Shown here in pieces: positions 9,001 to 15,000 of a DNA stretch of 42,778 bases. The position numbers were made by a program. The DNA is taken from UHGV virus genome UHGV-0203265; one strand, 5' to 3'. How positions within the stretch are numbered: the stretch's first letter is position 1; the number at the start of each line of letters is the position of its first letter. This stretch comes from a virus.

Positions 9001-12000
9001 TGTTCATTTCTTATTGTCAACGAAAAAGTTCATGATTCATGAATTTTTTCGTTGAAGATATATTCAATATCTTGTATACTTAAATCTATAAGGAGGTGTA
9101 CCAATGGATAGAGTTAAAACATCTGCTCGTCTAAAGCAACTTATGAGTGAGCGCAATTTAAAACAAGTTGATATTCTGCGTTTGTCAGAACCATATCAAA
9201 AAGAATTAAATATAAAAATGAGTAAAAGTACTTTGTCACAATATGTAACTGGAAAGCAATCACCTGACCAAAATAGAATTTATCTTTTGTCAAAAACTTT
9301 AGATGTTAACGAAGCGTGGCTAATGGGGTTTGATGTCTCTAAAAAAAGAATCCCTGACGAACAAAGATCTAGTGAAAAAGATGACTTCGACATAGTACCT
9401 ATATTCAACCAGTTAGAACCCAAGCTCCAACAGCTTATATATAACGAAGCTAAGTCTCATTTAGAAAAACAAAACAAAGCTTCTAATAACGTGGTTAACA
9501 TTAACAAGAAAAAATATGATACTTTAGCTGCGCATTCACCAGACCCTGATAAAGTATTTACTGATGAAGAGAAACTTAAAATTAATCAATTTCTAGATAA
9601 AGTGGATGCTGATTATGATAGGAAGCAAAAAGAATGTAAACATCTTTTTGATGATGATTCAGATGATAAAGAATAATTTTCAGGAGTATTTTATGAACGA
9701 ATATGAGCTGTTGGTGTCAGAGGTACAGAAAAAAGCACCAGTTATTGAAACAGATTTGTTTCAAAATACTGGATGCTATGGTTTGTACCGTGATGGTAGA
9801 ATTTATATTGAAAAATCGTTGAGTCTAATAAAAAAAAGGAATGTGCTAGCTGAGGAACTTGGCCACCACGATACATCGTTTGGTGACATATTAAACCAAG
9901 ATTGTTTAGAAAATCGTAAACAAGAACTAAAAGCTAGACAATATGCTTTAGAACAATTAGTCACTTTGGATGATCTAATTAAGTGTTCAGAATCAGGATT
10001 CAGTAATCATTACACGTGTGCTGAATTTTTAGGGGTAGACGTTGAAACGCTCAAAAATGTACTCGCCTATTATCGACAAAAATTTGGTGATACCCATTTT
10101 TATAAAGGAAGAATTTTCGAGTTTAATGATTTATCAGTCATGATTTTAAATACAAATTTACAATAAAAAAGCCCGTGCTACAACACGGAACTCTTTCCTC
10201 ATTATGAGAATTATTCAATAAATACATTATATCAGAAATGGGGAGCTTTAAAAATGAAAAAAATATTTGCATCTATGGCTTTTTTATTATTTGTCGTAGT
10301 AATATTTGTTGGTTGTTCTAAAAATGTGAACCCTGATTCTTCGAAATCTTCTACACAAGAATCTTCAAAGACCTATAAAATTTTAGTTGATCAAGATTCC
10401 ACTGAACAAAAGGAAAAATTAGAAAAGATATCTGAGTATTATAAAACCGCAGATCCAAAAAGCTATAATTCTAACGTTAGAGTTAATTCGATGTTAAGAG
10501 ATGAAAAGGCACATAAAGGCGAGAAGGTATATTCATTAGCTAAAATAATTCAAATTGTAGATGAACCAAGTGATGAATATATTTATTACATGGGCTATGT
10601 TACTTATGCAAAAAACGATAGAGAGTATGTTATGTTAGCGGTATTAAAAGATAATGTTTATTCCAAAGTTTTACAAGATGATGAAATTTTATTTTGGGCT
10701 TCATTTGCTGGTTCTTATGACTATACTACAAACTTAGGTGATAACAATACACTTCCTTTGCTTAAAGTAGATATGTATAAAAATGTAACTGCCTCAGAAG
10801 AAAAATAATAAAAATGCGTAGTTTTGTTATTTAAAGAAAGGATACAACCATGAAAGTAGGAATGCGTAAACCAAGTATAAAAAAATCAATAAGTGCTCGT
10901 ACTACTGGAAAAGCTAAACGTAAGTTTAAAAAAGCAGTAATTCCTGGTTATGGGCAAAAAGGAACTGGTTTCATTAAGAACCCCAAGAAAGCTATGTATA
11001 ATAAAGTATATAATAAAACAACTTTTAGCTTTTGGGATTTGTTCAAATAATCACCCTAAATTTTACAGTTTTAATTTAGTTTATAAAAATAATTGAATGG
11101 AGTCTTAAAAATGAAAAAAATAACTATCAGTATTTTACTACTATCTTCATTGACTTTAGGTGCTTGCGATTCTTCTAGTACTGCACCTGAAAAAAACAAA
11201 AAAGAAACTAGCACAACAAAAATAACTGAAAAAACATCTGCTACAAAAACCAGTACCAGTACTGAATCAACTAGCGATAATAAAAAGACAGTTTATAATT
11301 TAGGTGAATGGTGGGAAGTTCCCAATCAATGGAAACTCAAAATTGACAGCGTGACTTCTACAGATGAAAGAAACCCCTATTCAGATAAATCACCACAGCA
11401 AGTAGTTATAATTTCTTATACTTATGAAAATCTAGGATATGAAGATGACATTCAAGATTTATTTATTATGCCAGAAAATGTGGTAGATAGTGCCGGAATA
11501 ATGGGTGAAACTTATCCCGTCTCTACCACAGGAGCAAAGCCAACACCTGTTGGAGCAACAATGAGTGGGGCTCAGGCCGCATATGGCGTTCAAAATCCTG
11601 GTGGAAACATCAAAATATTATTCAAAAAATATGATTCAAATCGTACTGGTCAAGCTGCTACATTTGAAATACCTGTACAATAAAAGAAATAGCCTTAGGG
11701 CTTTTCTTTTTCAAAAATTAAGAACATACATTCGAAAGGAGTTTTAAAATTGTGGATTGAGGAACTTCCTAATGGAAAATATAAATACTTTGAGCGATAT
11801 AAAGATCCGTACACAGAAAAATATCGACGTGTTTCAGTTACACTTAATTCGAAGTCTAACCAAGCGAAAAAACAAGCGATGATGGAGTTACAGGATAAGA
11901 TTAATAATCGAATGGAGAAAAAAGATCAAAAAAAAGTATCATTAGAGAATCTCTTAAATAGCTGGTGGCAACAACATCAATTATCTATTAGGAAAACATC

Positions 12001-15000
12001 AGTTAAAGCTTACGGAAAAATTTTAAAATATATATTTTCCAATATGAATGTTGATGTACTCATAAGAAACACAGATACAAAATTTTTCCAAGACTTTATT
12101 AATGATTTACCGCATTCGTGGGAGTATAAGAAAAAATTCAAAAGTGTGCTTAACATGTCCTTCACTTATGCACAAGACATGGGAATGATTGATGAAAATC
12201 CTATCAATAGAGTGAAAGTTGTTAAACCCCCACTAACAAAAGAAAATTTTGAAAATATAGAAAGTAAATACCTCGAAGAGAGAGAGGTTTATCAATTATT
12301 AAGCTATTATTATTCTACATTTCAAAGTGTCCATCATGGTCGTTTAGCAGAGTTTATGTATTTAACTGGATTAAGAGCTGGTGAAGCAATTAGTCTTACT
12401 ATAAATGATTATGTAAAAAATGAACATGCTATTTTAGTTAATGGGACTTTGGATTATTCTAACGGTTATAAAAACGCTACAAAAGAATTACCTAAAACTC
12501 TAGCATCATTCAGGAAAGTAGAATTATCAAATAGAGCTGTAGAAATAATCGAAGAGTTAATTTTAGAAAGAGAAATAAAATTCAAAGAGCAAACAAATTA
12601 TCTATTTGTTGGCAAAACGGGCAACCCAATTCAAGTTAATTCATTCAATGCCTCTCTAAAGAAAGCTAATGAAAGTCTAGGTAAAAATAAAATAAACAAA
12701 ACTATATCAAGTCATATTTTTAGACATTCTCATATTTCACTACTTGCAGAATTAAATGTACCAGTAAAAGCAATAATGGAACGTGTAGGCCACGTTGACA
12801 CGGAAACAACTTTAAAAATTTATACTCATGTTACAAAAAAAGCTAAAACAAATCTGGTAGAAGCTCTAAATAAATATGGCAAGTAATTGCCCCTTTCGTG
12901 CCCCTTTTTTAATTCAAAACAAATAAAAAAAGGCTTAAAGCCTTTGATATCAACTATAATTCAGACACATGGCGGCACTTGCTTAGTCTTTCAAGCGTAT
13001 TTTACGACTATTTATAGCCTTGTAAAAACACTGTTAAATCAAGAATATTATAATTTAATACTATATATTTTTTTACAACCTTTTACAATTTTTGCCCCTT
13101 TTTTGCCCCTTTATTAATAGCCTTAGCTTTTTGACTCTTTTTTTTTATTATATTTTTATAGTATGGTATAGTTTTTTACAGCAGTTATTTACATTACTAA
13201 ATTTATGAATAGATTGAAAGGAATGATTACAAATGAAGAAATCTCTTTCGCTGGTCTTTGCATTATTATTACTAACAGCTTGTACTAATGAAAATACGAA
13301 AACAGAAAATACAAAAGGGTCATCTACTACTGTCACCTCTACAGTAAAGGAATCATCTAATAATAGTATAAATGAAAAAAACATACTGTCCACTAACACA
13401 ACAACTACTTCAACTGCTGACAGAAAATCATCCCAAACTGAAGAAGAACAATCACATACTGAGGATCCAGCTAGTTTGTCTTCTTTTGTTGGTGGCTGGG
13501 GTATTCCGCAAAGTGGTAATTTCTTTTTCATTAATCCTGATGGAAAAATGTCTGGATCTGGCCAGCCAAACGGAGTCATTCAGAGTCCTAATTTTCTAAG
13601 TAATGCTGACGGAAGCATTACAATGAATTTTATAATTAATAATACCTCTCTCTCATTTACAAAAAACTTAGATGGCACTTTATCTACTGAAAATCAAATC
13701 TATAGTTATCTTGGAAACATTACGCTAGAGCAATGGCTTGAACTTAAAAATAAAGGACAAATGTCATCTGAACAACAAACTGGAATCCTAGAAGCATCTT
13801 CTCAGACACCTTAAAAATATCCATCATGTTAATTTTTTAAGTCATCTTAGCTGACTCTATCTATTTTTATAATTATATATAGTATATATAGTTTTTTCAT
13901 ACAACTAGCTGTTGATATTAATAAGTGATTTGTCGAAACAAGAACTATCTAATTACTTGTTTTTAATTAAAACTGGAATTTGAGGTGCTCTTATTTTATA
14001 ATTAATGTACTGTATAAATATATTTTTGGTAATTTATAGGTTATTTTATTTAACTAGTAAGACTTTTTTCAAAAAAGTTTTTTTCTATTTAGCAAATATG
14101 TGTTTGTTAGTATGATTTATGAAAAATTCAAAACTAAGTAAATTTATATGGTTAAGAAATAAAACGATAGGAGAAAAAAATGAAATATTTTTTTAAAGAA
14201 AACAAAGGCTTAGCCATCTACAGCTTTTTGATGGTCTTTGCTACTTATGGTATTAAACTATTTAACAATACTTACGCTATTGATACTATGCACTTAATGA
14301 CTAACTACAGAGGCTACTTAAAACATTGGGTTTCAATTGGTAGACCAGGATTAGTAGCTTTAAAGCTTTTAACATACAACTATGTAAATGTTTATTTTTT
14401 AAATTTGTTAGCTATTATTTTCTTTGCTATCGCCACTATCTTGTTATGCTATTATGTTGATCTTTCAACTAAGCAGATTTATAACAAAAAGTATTTATAT
14501 GTTATCCCAAGTATTTTTCCAACCAGTCAATTATTTAGCGAACAATTTTACTTCGTCCTACAAAATTTTGAATTTTCATTAGGTATCTGTTTGGTTATAC
14601 TTTCTCTCATTGCTATTTACCATATTCCCAATAAAATTTTTAAATTATTTGGCTTTTTGTTACTGACGTTTACACTTACTATGTATCAATCATTCTTTGT
14701 ATTTGCGTGTACCTTAATTTTATTCAAGATTTTAATGGCATTGTATTTTGCTCAGTTAAATGATCTTAAAATTTCTTTTAAAGACTATGCCTTCAAAATC
14801 GGCCATTTTATTCTACTAGCTATTTCATCTCTCGTTCTATCTCAACTAATGGCGATGTTAGCGAAAAAAGTTTTAAACGTTGAAAGCTCCTATCTAGATA
14901 ATATGATTCTTTGGGGTAAACGCCCCTTGATAGATTCTATCAACGATATTAAAGATTACGCCAAAGAACTATTCTTCCCTCCAGTCGGAGACACTTTTTT

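Follow-up and report, generated by a model that had tools for sequence, protein, structure and literature searches.

Gene content of the lysogeny module

The DNA analyzed in this study, hereafter the window, is the complete 42.8-kb stretch (42,778 nucleotides) of virus genome UHGV-0203265, which is the genome of a temperate Enterococcus faecalis siphophage. Our subject is its lysogeny module at positions 9104-12886. Nearly all genes in the window are on the - strand, and the module forms a + strand island that is marked by a switch in GC and AT skew. The six open reading frames (ORFs) of the original prediction from the sequence are present in the island and co-oriented with the repressor gene rep; a Shine-Dalgarno-like sequence precedes each of them. 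The features of the module are as follows:

rep, 9104-9676, + strand: repressor of 190 amino acids (HTH_3, 5.1e-07; phrog_2967, 1.4e-71)
protease, 9693-10166, + strand: 157 amino acids, M78 family (ImmA/IrrE/DUF955; phrog_87 'metallo-protease', 2.3e-41)
GC-rich hairpin, 10172-10189: in the gap between protease and lip1, terminator-like on the - strand
lip1, 10254-10808, + strand: lipoprotein of 184 amino acids (phrog_5319, 3.4e-90)
mini, 10850-11050, + strand: 66 amino acids, free-standing basic N-module as judged from sequence
lip2, 11111-11683, + strand: lipoprotein of 190 amino acids (phrog_806, 3.4e-37)
tyrosine integrase, 11750-12886, + strand: 378 amino acids, TTG start (Phage_integrase, 8e-29; phrog_1, 3.2e-71)

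The TTG start of the integrase, which would be the closing gene of the module, is also the start annotated in RefSeq for phage vB_EfaS_IME197 (IME197). The lysogeny region is 99.4% identical to this phage across 86% of its length and 96% identical, in part, to phage EFC-1; the structural genes are 92-94% identical to those of both siblings. Positions 8600-13300 are 99.7% identical to the IMG/VR contig behind locus L021, and the module as such is near-identical to the prophage contigs of L005 and L021. The overall architecture is already known from TP-J34/Sfi21 and from Listeria A118-like phages. The module is largely ordinary apart from its small, strongly conserved basic mini-protein, relatives of which occur in thousands of prophages of Gram-positive bacteria, and as a whole it will not surprise a specialist. 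New are the extension of a pairing rule, in which EEXXH proteases go with [IL]AAH repressors, to Enterococcus and three other genera, the exact anatomy of the lipoprotein cassettes, and the breadth and constraint of the mini-protein module. We consider it somewhat probable that 9104-12886 is the lysogeny-maintenance arm of this siphophage in the full form that is developed below.

A protease with an EEXXH motif

The open frame of the protease gene begins at 9606, and the ribosome-binding site and RefSeq practice favor a start at 9693. Its product matches Peptidase_M78 (PF06114) with 26.7 bits against a gathering cutoff of 22 (E 5.3e-06). This is the family originally predicted, ImmA/IrrE, but the HEXXH motif that had been ascribed to the protein is absent throughout its sequence, and the aligned motif reads L-A-E-E-L-G-H. 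The metal motif is thus E55-E56-L-G-H59 (EEXXH), with a conserved NRKQELKAR downstream. Across 50 homologs, down to 38% identity, [AST]-E-E-x-x-H is invariant. The downstream NRKQE(L)KAR is likewise invariant among them and may be the source of a third metal ligand.

Searches with tblastn found the EEXXH subfamily in 262 phage records, with 179 from Staphylococcus and 36 from Listeria, followed by Paenibacillus, Clostridium and others. The four homologs that were extracted from phages of other genera all carry E-E-x-x-H: LYEELAHH in ORF029 of Staphylococcus phage 52A, IIEEAMHW in Gp35 of Listeria phage 293, LVEEVGHE in gp39 of Paenibacillus phage Vegas, and LAEELGHF in gp04 of Clostridium tetani phage phiCT9441A. 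Proteases at the equivalent position in other phages that contain the mini gene bear canonical HELGH-type motifs.

A BLASTP alignment with Listeria phage Gp35 (34% identity over 107 amino acids, E 5e-16) spans the motif. The relation to MpaR, the Listeria monocin protease with the metal site EELMH (Argov et al. 2019, PMC6872733), runs via this protein, A118 Gp35 being 38.7% identical to MpaR (PMC6872733). In vivo, MpaR cuts two CI-like repressors, that of the monocin and that of phi10403S, and does so more with mitomycin C; substitution H54A abolished both repressor cleavage and induction (PMC6872733). By these sequence relationships the window protease is a member of the EEXXH subfamily alongside MpaR and A118 Gp35, and not of the canonical HEXXH ImmA class.

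In NCBI records, many subfamily members from Enterococcus and Staphylococcus phages bear the name 'toxin', which stems from the predicted Xre-COG2856 toxin-antitoxin annotation and is contradicted by the work on MpaR, the authors of which explicitly rejected that earlier annotation (PMC6872733). A PDB sequence search with the protease gave chance matches only. The literature found under 'EEXXH' consisted solely of papers on the ZIP8/ZIP14 transporters; by analogy with these, one might speculate that the H-to-E change could shift metal preference.

The repressor and its predicted cleavage site

The product of rep is an XRE/CI-like protein with an N-terminal helix-turn-helix (HTH) and a near-invariant C-terminal domain that extends from about residue 102-119 to residue 190. 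Pfam searches gave no Peptidase_S24 match even at E<=10, which agrees with the claim that this CI-like repressor lacks an autopeptidase domain. The combination of an HTH, no S24 domain and a protease gene 16 nt downstream is that of an ImmR-type repressor. The E. faecalis siblings share one near-invariant C-domain of ~90 amino acids, which contains the sequence TLAAH, but the HTH heads in front of it are of at least four unrelated types, and the protease gene behind these differing heads is 97-100% identical. Comparison with the siblings by blastn places the DNA junction of the head exchange inside rep at ~9406-9458. Such modularity is the pattern expected for an exchangeable HTH head, which carries immunity specificity, on a co-adapted pair of C-domain and protease.

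The sequence T140-L-A-A-H144 of Rep lies in the conserved C-domain and is followed by SPDPDKVFTDEEKLKINQFL, with the stretch DEEKLKINQFL downstream. It corresponds to the mapped cleavage site of MpaR, which cuts between Ala and His in TIAA-HID, inside the conserved TIAAHIDxxxxEExxxxILAYIE (PMC6872733). Repressors encoded directly upstream of other EEXXH proteases have LLAAHID (Listeria), TIAAHHD (Paenibacillus) and PIAAHDK (C. tetani), and the Staphylococcus repressor has the variant TIAGHAN. At the loci examined, canonical HEXXH proteases are preceded by 14 distinct ORFs, none of which has an AAH-like motif. Phages of Enterococcus, Listeria, Paenibacillus and Clostridium follow the rule that an [IL]AAH repressor accompanies an EEXXH protease, and a Staphylococcus phage has IAGH instead; the rule could improve the annotation of genes that are now labeled 'toxin' or 'hypothetical'.

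Because of the subfamily homology, the matching substrate motif and the modularity of the repressor, we rate the repressor-cleavage logic as likely: Rep is probably cut by the neighboring M78 protease, with A143-H144 in TLAAH as the most likely scissile bond predicted from the alignment. The ImmR/ImmA logic that was originally proposed is supported as far as the pairing of a repressor with a separate protease goes; the grounds for it differ, consisting of the EEXXH and TLAAH motifs, and the closest model is Listeria CI-like/MpaR. This assignment would put a switch that is common among E. faecalis prophages into the MpaR-type class, which is validated by experiment, and offers a concrete bond, A143-H144, for study.

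In the deposited genome of IME197 (locus L001, 3105-3678), the repressor is split by a frameshift into ORFs of 84 and 114 amino acids, unlike in the window and in several prophage contigs, where it is intact at 190 amino acids. The split could reflect a clear-plaque or virulent derivative, or else a sequencing error.

The divergent switch region

On the other side of rep, a leftward early operon starts on the - strand beyond a short switch region:

excisionase-like ORF, 7647-7895, - strand: 82 amino acids; the 99%-identical ORF of IME197 is annotated as excisionase
Ant anti-repressor, 7911-8630, - strand: AntA 4.3e-24 and ANT 4.9e-33 (Pfam), KilAC domain, phrog_63 3.8e-77
Cro-like DUF739 protein, 8712-8945, - strand: Pfam DUF739 2.2e-38, first gene of the leftward operon
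switch region, 8963-9060: two operator-like palindromes and the start of divergent promoter-like hexamers

The layout of repressor, DUF739 and Ant genes is also seen in C. tetani phage phiCT9441A. The intergenic region measures 158 bp and contains two related palindromes 63-64 bp apart. The first, AAGTTCATGAACATGAACTTT, is at 8963-8983; the second, AAGTTCATGATTCATGAATTTT, is at 9026-9047 within an inverted repeat at 9012-9060 that has 24-nt arms. A leftward promoter-like site, TTGACA-17-TATTAT (9020..8992), scores 11/12 against the consensus and a rightward one, TTGAAG-17-TATACT (9052..9080), scores 9/12; the promoter and operator calls are consensus matches only and not functional evidence.

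We propose that the XRE-type repressor would be transcribed from the rightward promoter and would bind the two AAGTTCATGA-type palindromes, silencing the leftward cro(DUF739)-ant-xis lytic operon. The anatomy for this silencing step is present at the locus, and the binding of the operators is what we infer from it. After DNA damage or other stress, the protease would cleave the C-domain of the repressor, probably within TLAAH. Cleavage would part the HTH head from the C-terminal portion and derepress the lytic operon, and the Ant then made would reinforce the switch.

Two exchangeable lipoprotein cassettes

The prediction of two lipobox lipoproteins was borne out. Both proteins fit the Gram-positive pattern G+LPPv2, lip1 with Cys21 (match MKKIFASMAFLLFVVVIFVGC, lipobox IFVG-C21) and lip2 with Cys19 (match MKKITISILLLSSLTLGAC, lipobox TLGA-C19), lipidation itself being predicted. 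The frame of lip2 opens at a TTG at 11093.

Comparison with the siblings by blastn showed that the borders of both cassettes are sharp. On the left, a conserved block that comprises the protease gene, the hairpin and the first three lipoprotein codons (ATGAAAAAA) extends to 10262/10263, and conservation resumes at 10832-10849. The replaceable DNA of slot 1, from ~10263 to 10831-10848, corresponds to lip1. Slot 2, which holds lip2, runs from ~11051 to 11673-11680 and is of the present/absent type: conservation ends at the stop codon of mini and resumes at 11674-11681, just ahead of the stop codon of lip2. The left junction of slot 1 lies directly after the Met-Lys-Lys that starts the signal peptide. 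With this junction behind shared codons, unrelated lipoprotein genes replace one another in frame while the ribosome-binding site and the start codon stay the same.

In EFC-1-like siblings, the slot-1 allele encodes a lipoprotein of 294 amino acids with two Ltp repeats (PF07553, E 8.5e-26), and the flanks of this Ltp-bearing slot are 97-100% identical. Further slot-1 alleles encode DUF5067 lipoproteins (225 and 233 amino acids) and unrelated lipoproteins (254 and 177 amino acids). At 80 IMG/VR loci, the mini gene is flanked by at least eight unrelated lipoprotein families, and E. faecium-type phages have related cassettes with LysM cell-wall-binding domains. Ltp of phage TP-J34 is reportedly a validated exclusion lipoprotein that targets the tape-measure protein. 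The work on TP-J34 Ltp is cited in PMC6356687. The original prediction had compared the position of the two lipoproteins, between the regulators and the integrase, with that of Ltp; since an Ltp gene occupies slot 1 in siblings through a precise allelic swap, this superinfection exclusion (Sie) position is backed by allelic replacement and not by mere analogy. Neither lip1 nor lip2 matched PF07553 at E<=10.

lip1 is rare, with two other clusters only and no tblastn match in 50,697 phage records; it has a weak similarity to a DUF4352 protein (25% over 103 amino acids, E 9e-5). Homology between lip1 and lip2 was considered and rejected when hhalign joined their signal peptides only. In lip2, a disordered linker rich in Ser and Thr is followed by a predicted C-terminal Ig-like seven-strand beta-sandwich at residues 60-190, for which the AlphaFold2 (AF2) model has pLDDT >95. 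We found 58 homologs with 35-99% identity in the C-domain. Foldseek returned phage DUF5067/DUF4352 lipoproteins (E 2e-5 to 7e-4), and from the PDB Bacillus subtilis YjhA (3cfu; TM-score 0.61, E 0.034). Pfam gave no match for lip2, the DUF4352 and DUF5067 thresholds not being reached; one homolog (P0385) bears PF11611. The similarity to gp32 of Listeria A118-like phages is 39% over 122 amino acids (E 3e-16); the gp32 gene also adjoins the integrase gene and is labeled 'putative superinfection immunity protein' in one record. On this evidence, which is in part that of a structure model, lip2 is a predicted DUF4352/DUF5067-like beta-sandwich homologous to A118 gp32. In mycobacterial Mpr, non-abortive phage defense depends on the DUF4352 domain, and phages escape this defense via a minor tail protein (PMC12596739).

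The orientation of lip1, mini and lip2 suggests that the lysogen expresses these genes. We regard superinfection exclusion by lip1 and lip2 as plausible, with the chances evenly poised: the anatomy of the cassettes is clear and the function would follow from the Ltp model. Lipid-anchored lip1 and lip2 would block DNA entry of related siphophages that is mediated by the tail tip or the tape-measure protein, in an Ltp-like manner, and the turnover of the cassettes would mirror an arms race. For phage therapy of enterococci, the two bounded cassettes are obvious places in which to seek prophage functions that exclude therapeutic siphophages and thereby narrow their host range.

A different role, which we think unlikely, would make lip1 and lip2, and perhaps mini, sensors or modulators of prophage activation, through which surface signals or cell density would influence whether the prophage excises, replicates or lyses the cell, as for SzaL/SpaL of pneumococcal ImmAR-type prophages. 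SzaL and SpaL are surface-exposed and encoded in the lysogeny module, and their disruption alters the responses to mitomycin C and competence-stimulating peptide as well as density-dependent activation (PMC12637031). A fused relative of mini, ThaL, is named as a lysogeny-associated gene in the same study (PMC12637031), and mini adjoins regulators and recombinase in the 80 loci examined. SzaL and SpaL, however, are zinc(-metallo)proteins, whereas lip1 and lip2 gave no match to a metal-binding family. The slot-1 allele of siblings belongs to the Ltp family, the sole validated role of which is exclusion, and an arms race accounts better than conserved signaling for the extreme turnover, in which at least eight unrelated families take part.

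Still less probable, in our view, is that the lipoproteins are lysogenic-conversion cargo with a host benefit unrelated to phages, such as adhesion, cell-wall or nutrient binding, or immune evasion. The Ig-like beta-sandwich of lip2 is generic and also found in adhesins and carbohydrate-binding modules, the LysM domains in cassettes of E. faecium-type phages bind the cell wall, and other morons, a GtrII glucosyltransferase and a DUF4950 lipoprotein, lie near the phage attachment site attP. This idea is countered by the allelism of the cassette slot with Ltp, by the lip2 homologs in an equal int-proximal position in Listeria A118-like phages, and by the closest folds to lip2, which are phage DUF4352/DUF5067 lipoproteins with a domain implicated in phage defense.

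A conserved basic mini-protein

Between the two cassettes, the mini gene forms a conserved 202-bp island (10849-11050). Its 66-amino acid product is strongly rich in Lys and Arg, as had been predicted (19 Lys/Arg versus 1 Asp/Glu, isoelectric point 10.9, net charge +17.5). The accompanying claim that it has no obvious counterpart was refuted: relatives form 3,103 clusters at 90% identity and 1,277 at 50% identity, and tblastn found mini in 97 phage records, including gp2 of Streptococcus phage SM1, pneumococcal 'HIRAN domain proteins', and proteins of Clostridium, Paenibacillus, Lactobacillus and Geobacillus phages. In representatives of the 50%-identity clusters, the match lies at the N-terminus or no more than a few dozen residues from it. 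The 66-amino acid form is 79-100% identical across Enterococcus, Lactococcus, Carnobacterium and Ligilactobacillus, and more than 100 clusters keep its length. The pneumococcal phage 'HIRAN domain proteins' are 69-71% identical to mini over residues 1-65; mini ends at residue 66, right behind this module, and has no transmembrane (TM) hairpin and no HIRAN domain. The fused pneumococcal form was recently named ThaL and is uncharacterised (PMC12637031). These alignments indicate that mini consists of a conserved basic module, the ThaL N-module, which forms the N-terminus of longer proteins and here stands alone.

The nonsynonymous divergence (dN) of mini is 0.09-0.28 with saturated synonymous sites, and the ratio of nonsynonymous to synonymous divergence (dN/dS) is ~0.05-0.11 where it can be estimated, which indicates that strong purifying selection acts on the protein. 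Constraint at the level of DNA or RNA was considered and rejected, the synonymous sites being saturated and no Rfam RNA family being found at mini. Fifteen residues are invariant in close homologs (R6, P8, T18, K23, Y34, K37, G38, G40, P45, Y50, K52, K56, T57, S60 and F65), and most of these are near-invariant in the broad set too. Pfam searches with mini at E<=10 gave noise only (Protamine_3 and Csx1_CARF at E ~0.1), and the module corresponds to no Pfam, NCBIfam or PADLOC family.

Among 80 loci, all those with an interpretable context have mini between the repressor/protease gene and the recombinase gene and co-oriented with them; the recombinase is one of several tyrosine integrase types or a large serine recombinase. 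Stand-alone mini genes are adjacent to a lipoprotein or membrane protein gene in 25 of 42 distinct contexts, and fused forms are mostly followed directly by the integrase gene. Among the extended relatives, 81 of 109 have a hydrophobic segment or hairpin, at a median of 41 amino acids past the module. Their C-termini, as assigned by Pfam, include TM2 (7), HIRAN (4, in a set of 150 mini-family representatives), zinc ribbons, TPR, Ada-Zn, RNase_T, TerB_N, Cas2 and MarR. Single representatives (P0121-P0270) are fused to Cas2 (3.9e-15), RNase_T (1.5e-20), TerB_N (1.5e-16) or an Ada Zn-binding domain.

A screen for split and fused pairs yielded one real pair, a TM-exonuclease, and one trivial TM match. 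In the real pair, a fusion of module, TM hairpin and RNase_T matches a TM-RNase_T-BRCT protein that is encoded right after stand-alone mini at other loci. A TM-anchored Ltp-repeat protein is encoded directly after mini at another locus, and at L039 a DUF6414 protein is directly downstream of mini. A hidden Markov model of lip2 found no matches in extended mini-family proteins. In general, conflict-type genes seem to accumulate in the int-proximal slot, which would make it a hotspot.

The suggestion that mini is toxin-like found no support. A role in nucleic-acid binding, proposed at the same time, is compatible with the fusion partners and unproven. In the mechanism that we favor, mini would be a cytoplasmic, non-globular and partner-dependent protein that acts at the inner membrane face as adaptor or partner of prophage accessory proteins, with nucleic acid or a conserved protein as its possible binding target there. 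That it contributes to exclusion or defense is a tentative suggestion. The N-module is previously undescribed and very widespread, its 1,277 clusters at 50% identity coming from prophages of Enterococcus, Streptococcus, Lactococcus, Lactobacillus, Clostridium, Paenibacillus and Geobacillus. Equally tentative is the idea that it might serve as the common 'handle' of a large polymorphic family of prophage-encoded, membrane-anchored exclusion or defense effectors (HIRAN, 3'-5' exonuclease, TM2, Cas2, TerB_N and others). If that were true, the module would interact with some conserved component of host or phage at the inner membrane face, the place where incoming phage DNA arrives, and the split form found here would cooperate with the neighboring exchangeable lipoprotein cassettes. 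As a strongly constrained and ubiquitous component of lysogeny modules, the mini family has real discovery potential and is a worthwhile lead.

It is improbable, to the same degree as the cargo explanation of the lipoproteins, that mini is instead a nucleic-acid-binding accessory of site-specific recombination or integrase expression with no envelope role. Its gene is directly upstream of the recombinase gene or one cassette away, the protein is very basic (+17.5) with no stable fold of its own, and several fusion partners are DNA-related (HIRAN, RNase_T with BRCT, Ada Zn, MarR, Cas2). Yet mini accompanies unrelated tyrosine integrases (24-40% identity to that of the window) and large serine recombinases alike, the phage has a separate excisionase-like gene, and ~74% of the extended relatives are membrane-anchored, which would be odd for a recombination cofactor.

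Weighing the proposed mechanism

Several observations weigh against the explanation favored here, in which a protease-controlled repressor maintains lysogeny and the lipoproteins, with mini as partner, exclude related phages. Promoter-like sites in the switch region are no more numerous than the shuffled expectation. The hairpin after the protease gene has a weak T-tract on the + strand, and read-through into lip1 is not assured. No Ltp, Sie or PADLOC model matches lip1 or lip2; the fold of lip1 is unassigned, and its hhalign alignment with the lip2 family is limited to the signal peptide. Pneumococcal surface proteins in the equivalent position tune induction and not exclusion (PMC12637031). 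The AF2 model of mini consists of short helices at low confidence (mean pLDDT 68, pTM 0.31), hydrophobic-moment analysis of mini showed no clear amphipathic membrane-binding helix, and no membrane protein is adjacent in 17 of the 42 stand-alone contexts. Cleavage of Rep, expression in the lysogen and the exclusion phenotype are all things that we infer. In the protease, Glu takes the place of the first zinc-ligand His in the family motif, and the catalytic chemistry and metal preference are uncertain for this reason. Finally, the related Rir of TP-J34 reportedly acted through binding its repressor.

The last two points bear on the rival explanation that we judge most improbable, namely that the EEXXH protein is no protease, and is instead a stoichiometric anti-repressor that would bind the C-domain of the repressor and thereby keep it off the operators, or the toxin half of an Xre-COG2856 pair. 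Besides the replacement of the first His of canonical HEXXH by Glu, it can draw on the several homologs that NCBI calls 'toxin' and on Koberg et al. 2015, who are said to have found that TP-J34 Rir complexed the repressor Crh and blocked its operator binding. The work of Koberg is cited for the lower stability of the protease in PMC12637031. Against it, two CI-like repressors are cut in vivo by MpaR, the site of which (EELMH) is likewise of the EEXXH type, and the H54A form of MpaR is inactive (PMC6872733); E55, E56, H59 and the downstream KQE are invariant in the subfamily, as an active site would be; the [IL]AAH substrate motif co-varies with the EEXXH subfamily; and the pair of rep and protease genes is located at a classical divergent switch with cro and ant.

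Comparison with known systems

The Listeria CI-like/MpaR systems (monocin; phi10403S; A118 Gp36/Gp35) resemble the E. faecalis module in having an M78 protease with E-E-x-x-H directly downstream of an XRE repressor that lacks S24, and in a repressor with [IL]AA-H, the cut falling before His, followed by an acidic EE stretch. The A118-like module also has a lipoprotein homologous to lip2, gp32, beside the integrase at its end. The host genus differs, and Rep of the window, with 190 versus ~101 amino acids, has a longer C-domain and another spacing between AAH and EE. In Listeria, genes for a zinc-ribbon/TM protein and a membrane protein take the place of lip1 and mini, and cleavage was demonstrated for MpaR (PMC6872733) whereas here it is predicted from sequence. 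In Listeria phage vB_LmoS_293 (L084, 2091-4661), the order is CI-like repressor (LLAAHID), EEXXH Gp35, zinc-ribbon/TM protein, membrane protein, gp32 and integrase. This likeness suggests an old module design common to Firmicutes phages.

Details of the Streptococcus thermophilus TP-J34/Sfi21 module (crh-rir-ltp-int with divergent coh-ant) are reportedly to be found in Neve 1998, Sun 2006, Bebeacua 2013 and Koberg 2015. In gene logic and order it is identical to the present module, with a repressor, a protein with a metalloprotease motif, a surface lipoprotein and an integrase, and with cro-like and ant genes that diverge from them; the slot-1 lipoprotein of sibling E. faecalis phages is of its PF07553 Ltp family. 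In contrast, lip1 and lip2 are not of the Ltp family. No S. thermophilus phage was among the mini tblastn matches listed (60 of 97), and none was among the listed matches of the protease search.

ICEBs1 of B. subtilis likewise has an HTH repressor without S24 and an adjacent M78 anti-repressor, ImmR and ImmA, with divergent promoters and a place by the integrase gene; a response of the protease to DNA damage would be a further likeness, proposed on the side of the window. ICEBs1 ImmA is said to have a canonical HEXXH and to cut ImmR at a different sequence. The pair in the window is of the EEXXH/[IL]AAH subfamily, and ICEBs1, unlike the phage, is conjugative and lacks Sie-type cassettes.

The pneumococcal genes thaL, szaL and spaL (PMC12637031) are related through mini, which is ~70% identical to the N-terminus of the 'HIRAN domain proteins', equated with thaL by annotation only. 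thaL lies between regulator and integrase, and SzaL and SpaL are surface proteins that are equivalently placed. The E. faecalis mini, however, is the N-module alone, and SzaL and SpaL are zinc proteins unrelated to lip1 and lip2. With Mpr and the DUF4352/DUF5067 lipoproteins, lip2 would share the Ig-like beta-sandwich that is predicted for its C-domain; Mpr differs as a host membrane nuclease with extra domains, and lip2 falls below the Pfam thresholds.

Other features of the window

PADLOC models gave no match for protease, lip1, mini, lip2, lip3 or the GtrII-like protein, and rep gave weak HTH-level matches to RmrA alone. An NCBIfam scan of protease, lip1, mini and lip2 returned nothing meaningful.

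Past the integrase and the presumed attP, a second moron island extends over 13233-15682. It encodes a DUF4950 lipoprotein (13233-13814; PF16308, 5e-33), which carries the PHROG label 'endolysin; lysM motif', and a GtrII-type glucosyltransferase of 500 amino acids (14180-15682; PF14264, 1.8e-26). The latter is a candidate modifier of a cell-wall polymer and could alter phage receptors. An island of DUF4950 lipoprotein and GtrII genes also follows the integrase gene in L012, L020 and L021, and IME197 has an abortive-infection protein and a DUF4231-TIR pair at the equivalent place. Farther away, the phage encodes a tRNA-Asn (GTT) at 41594-41666 on the - strand, on which ARAGORN and Rfam (70.5 bits) agree.

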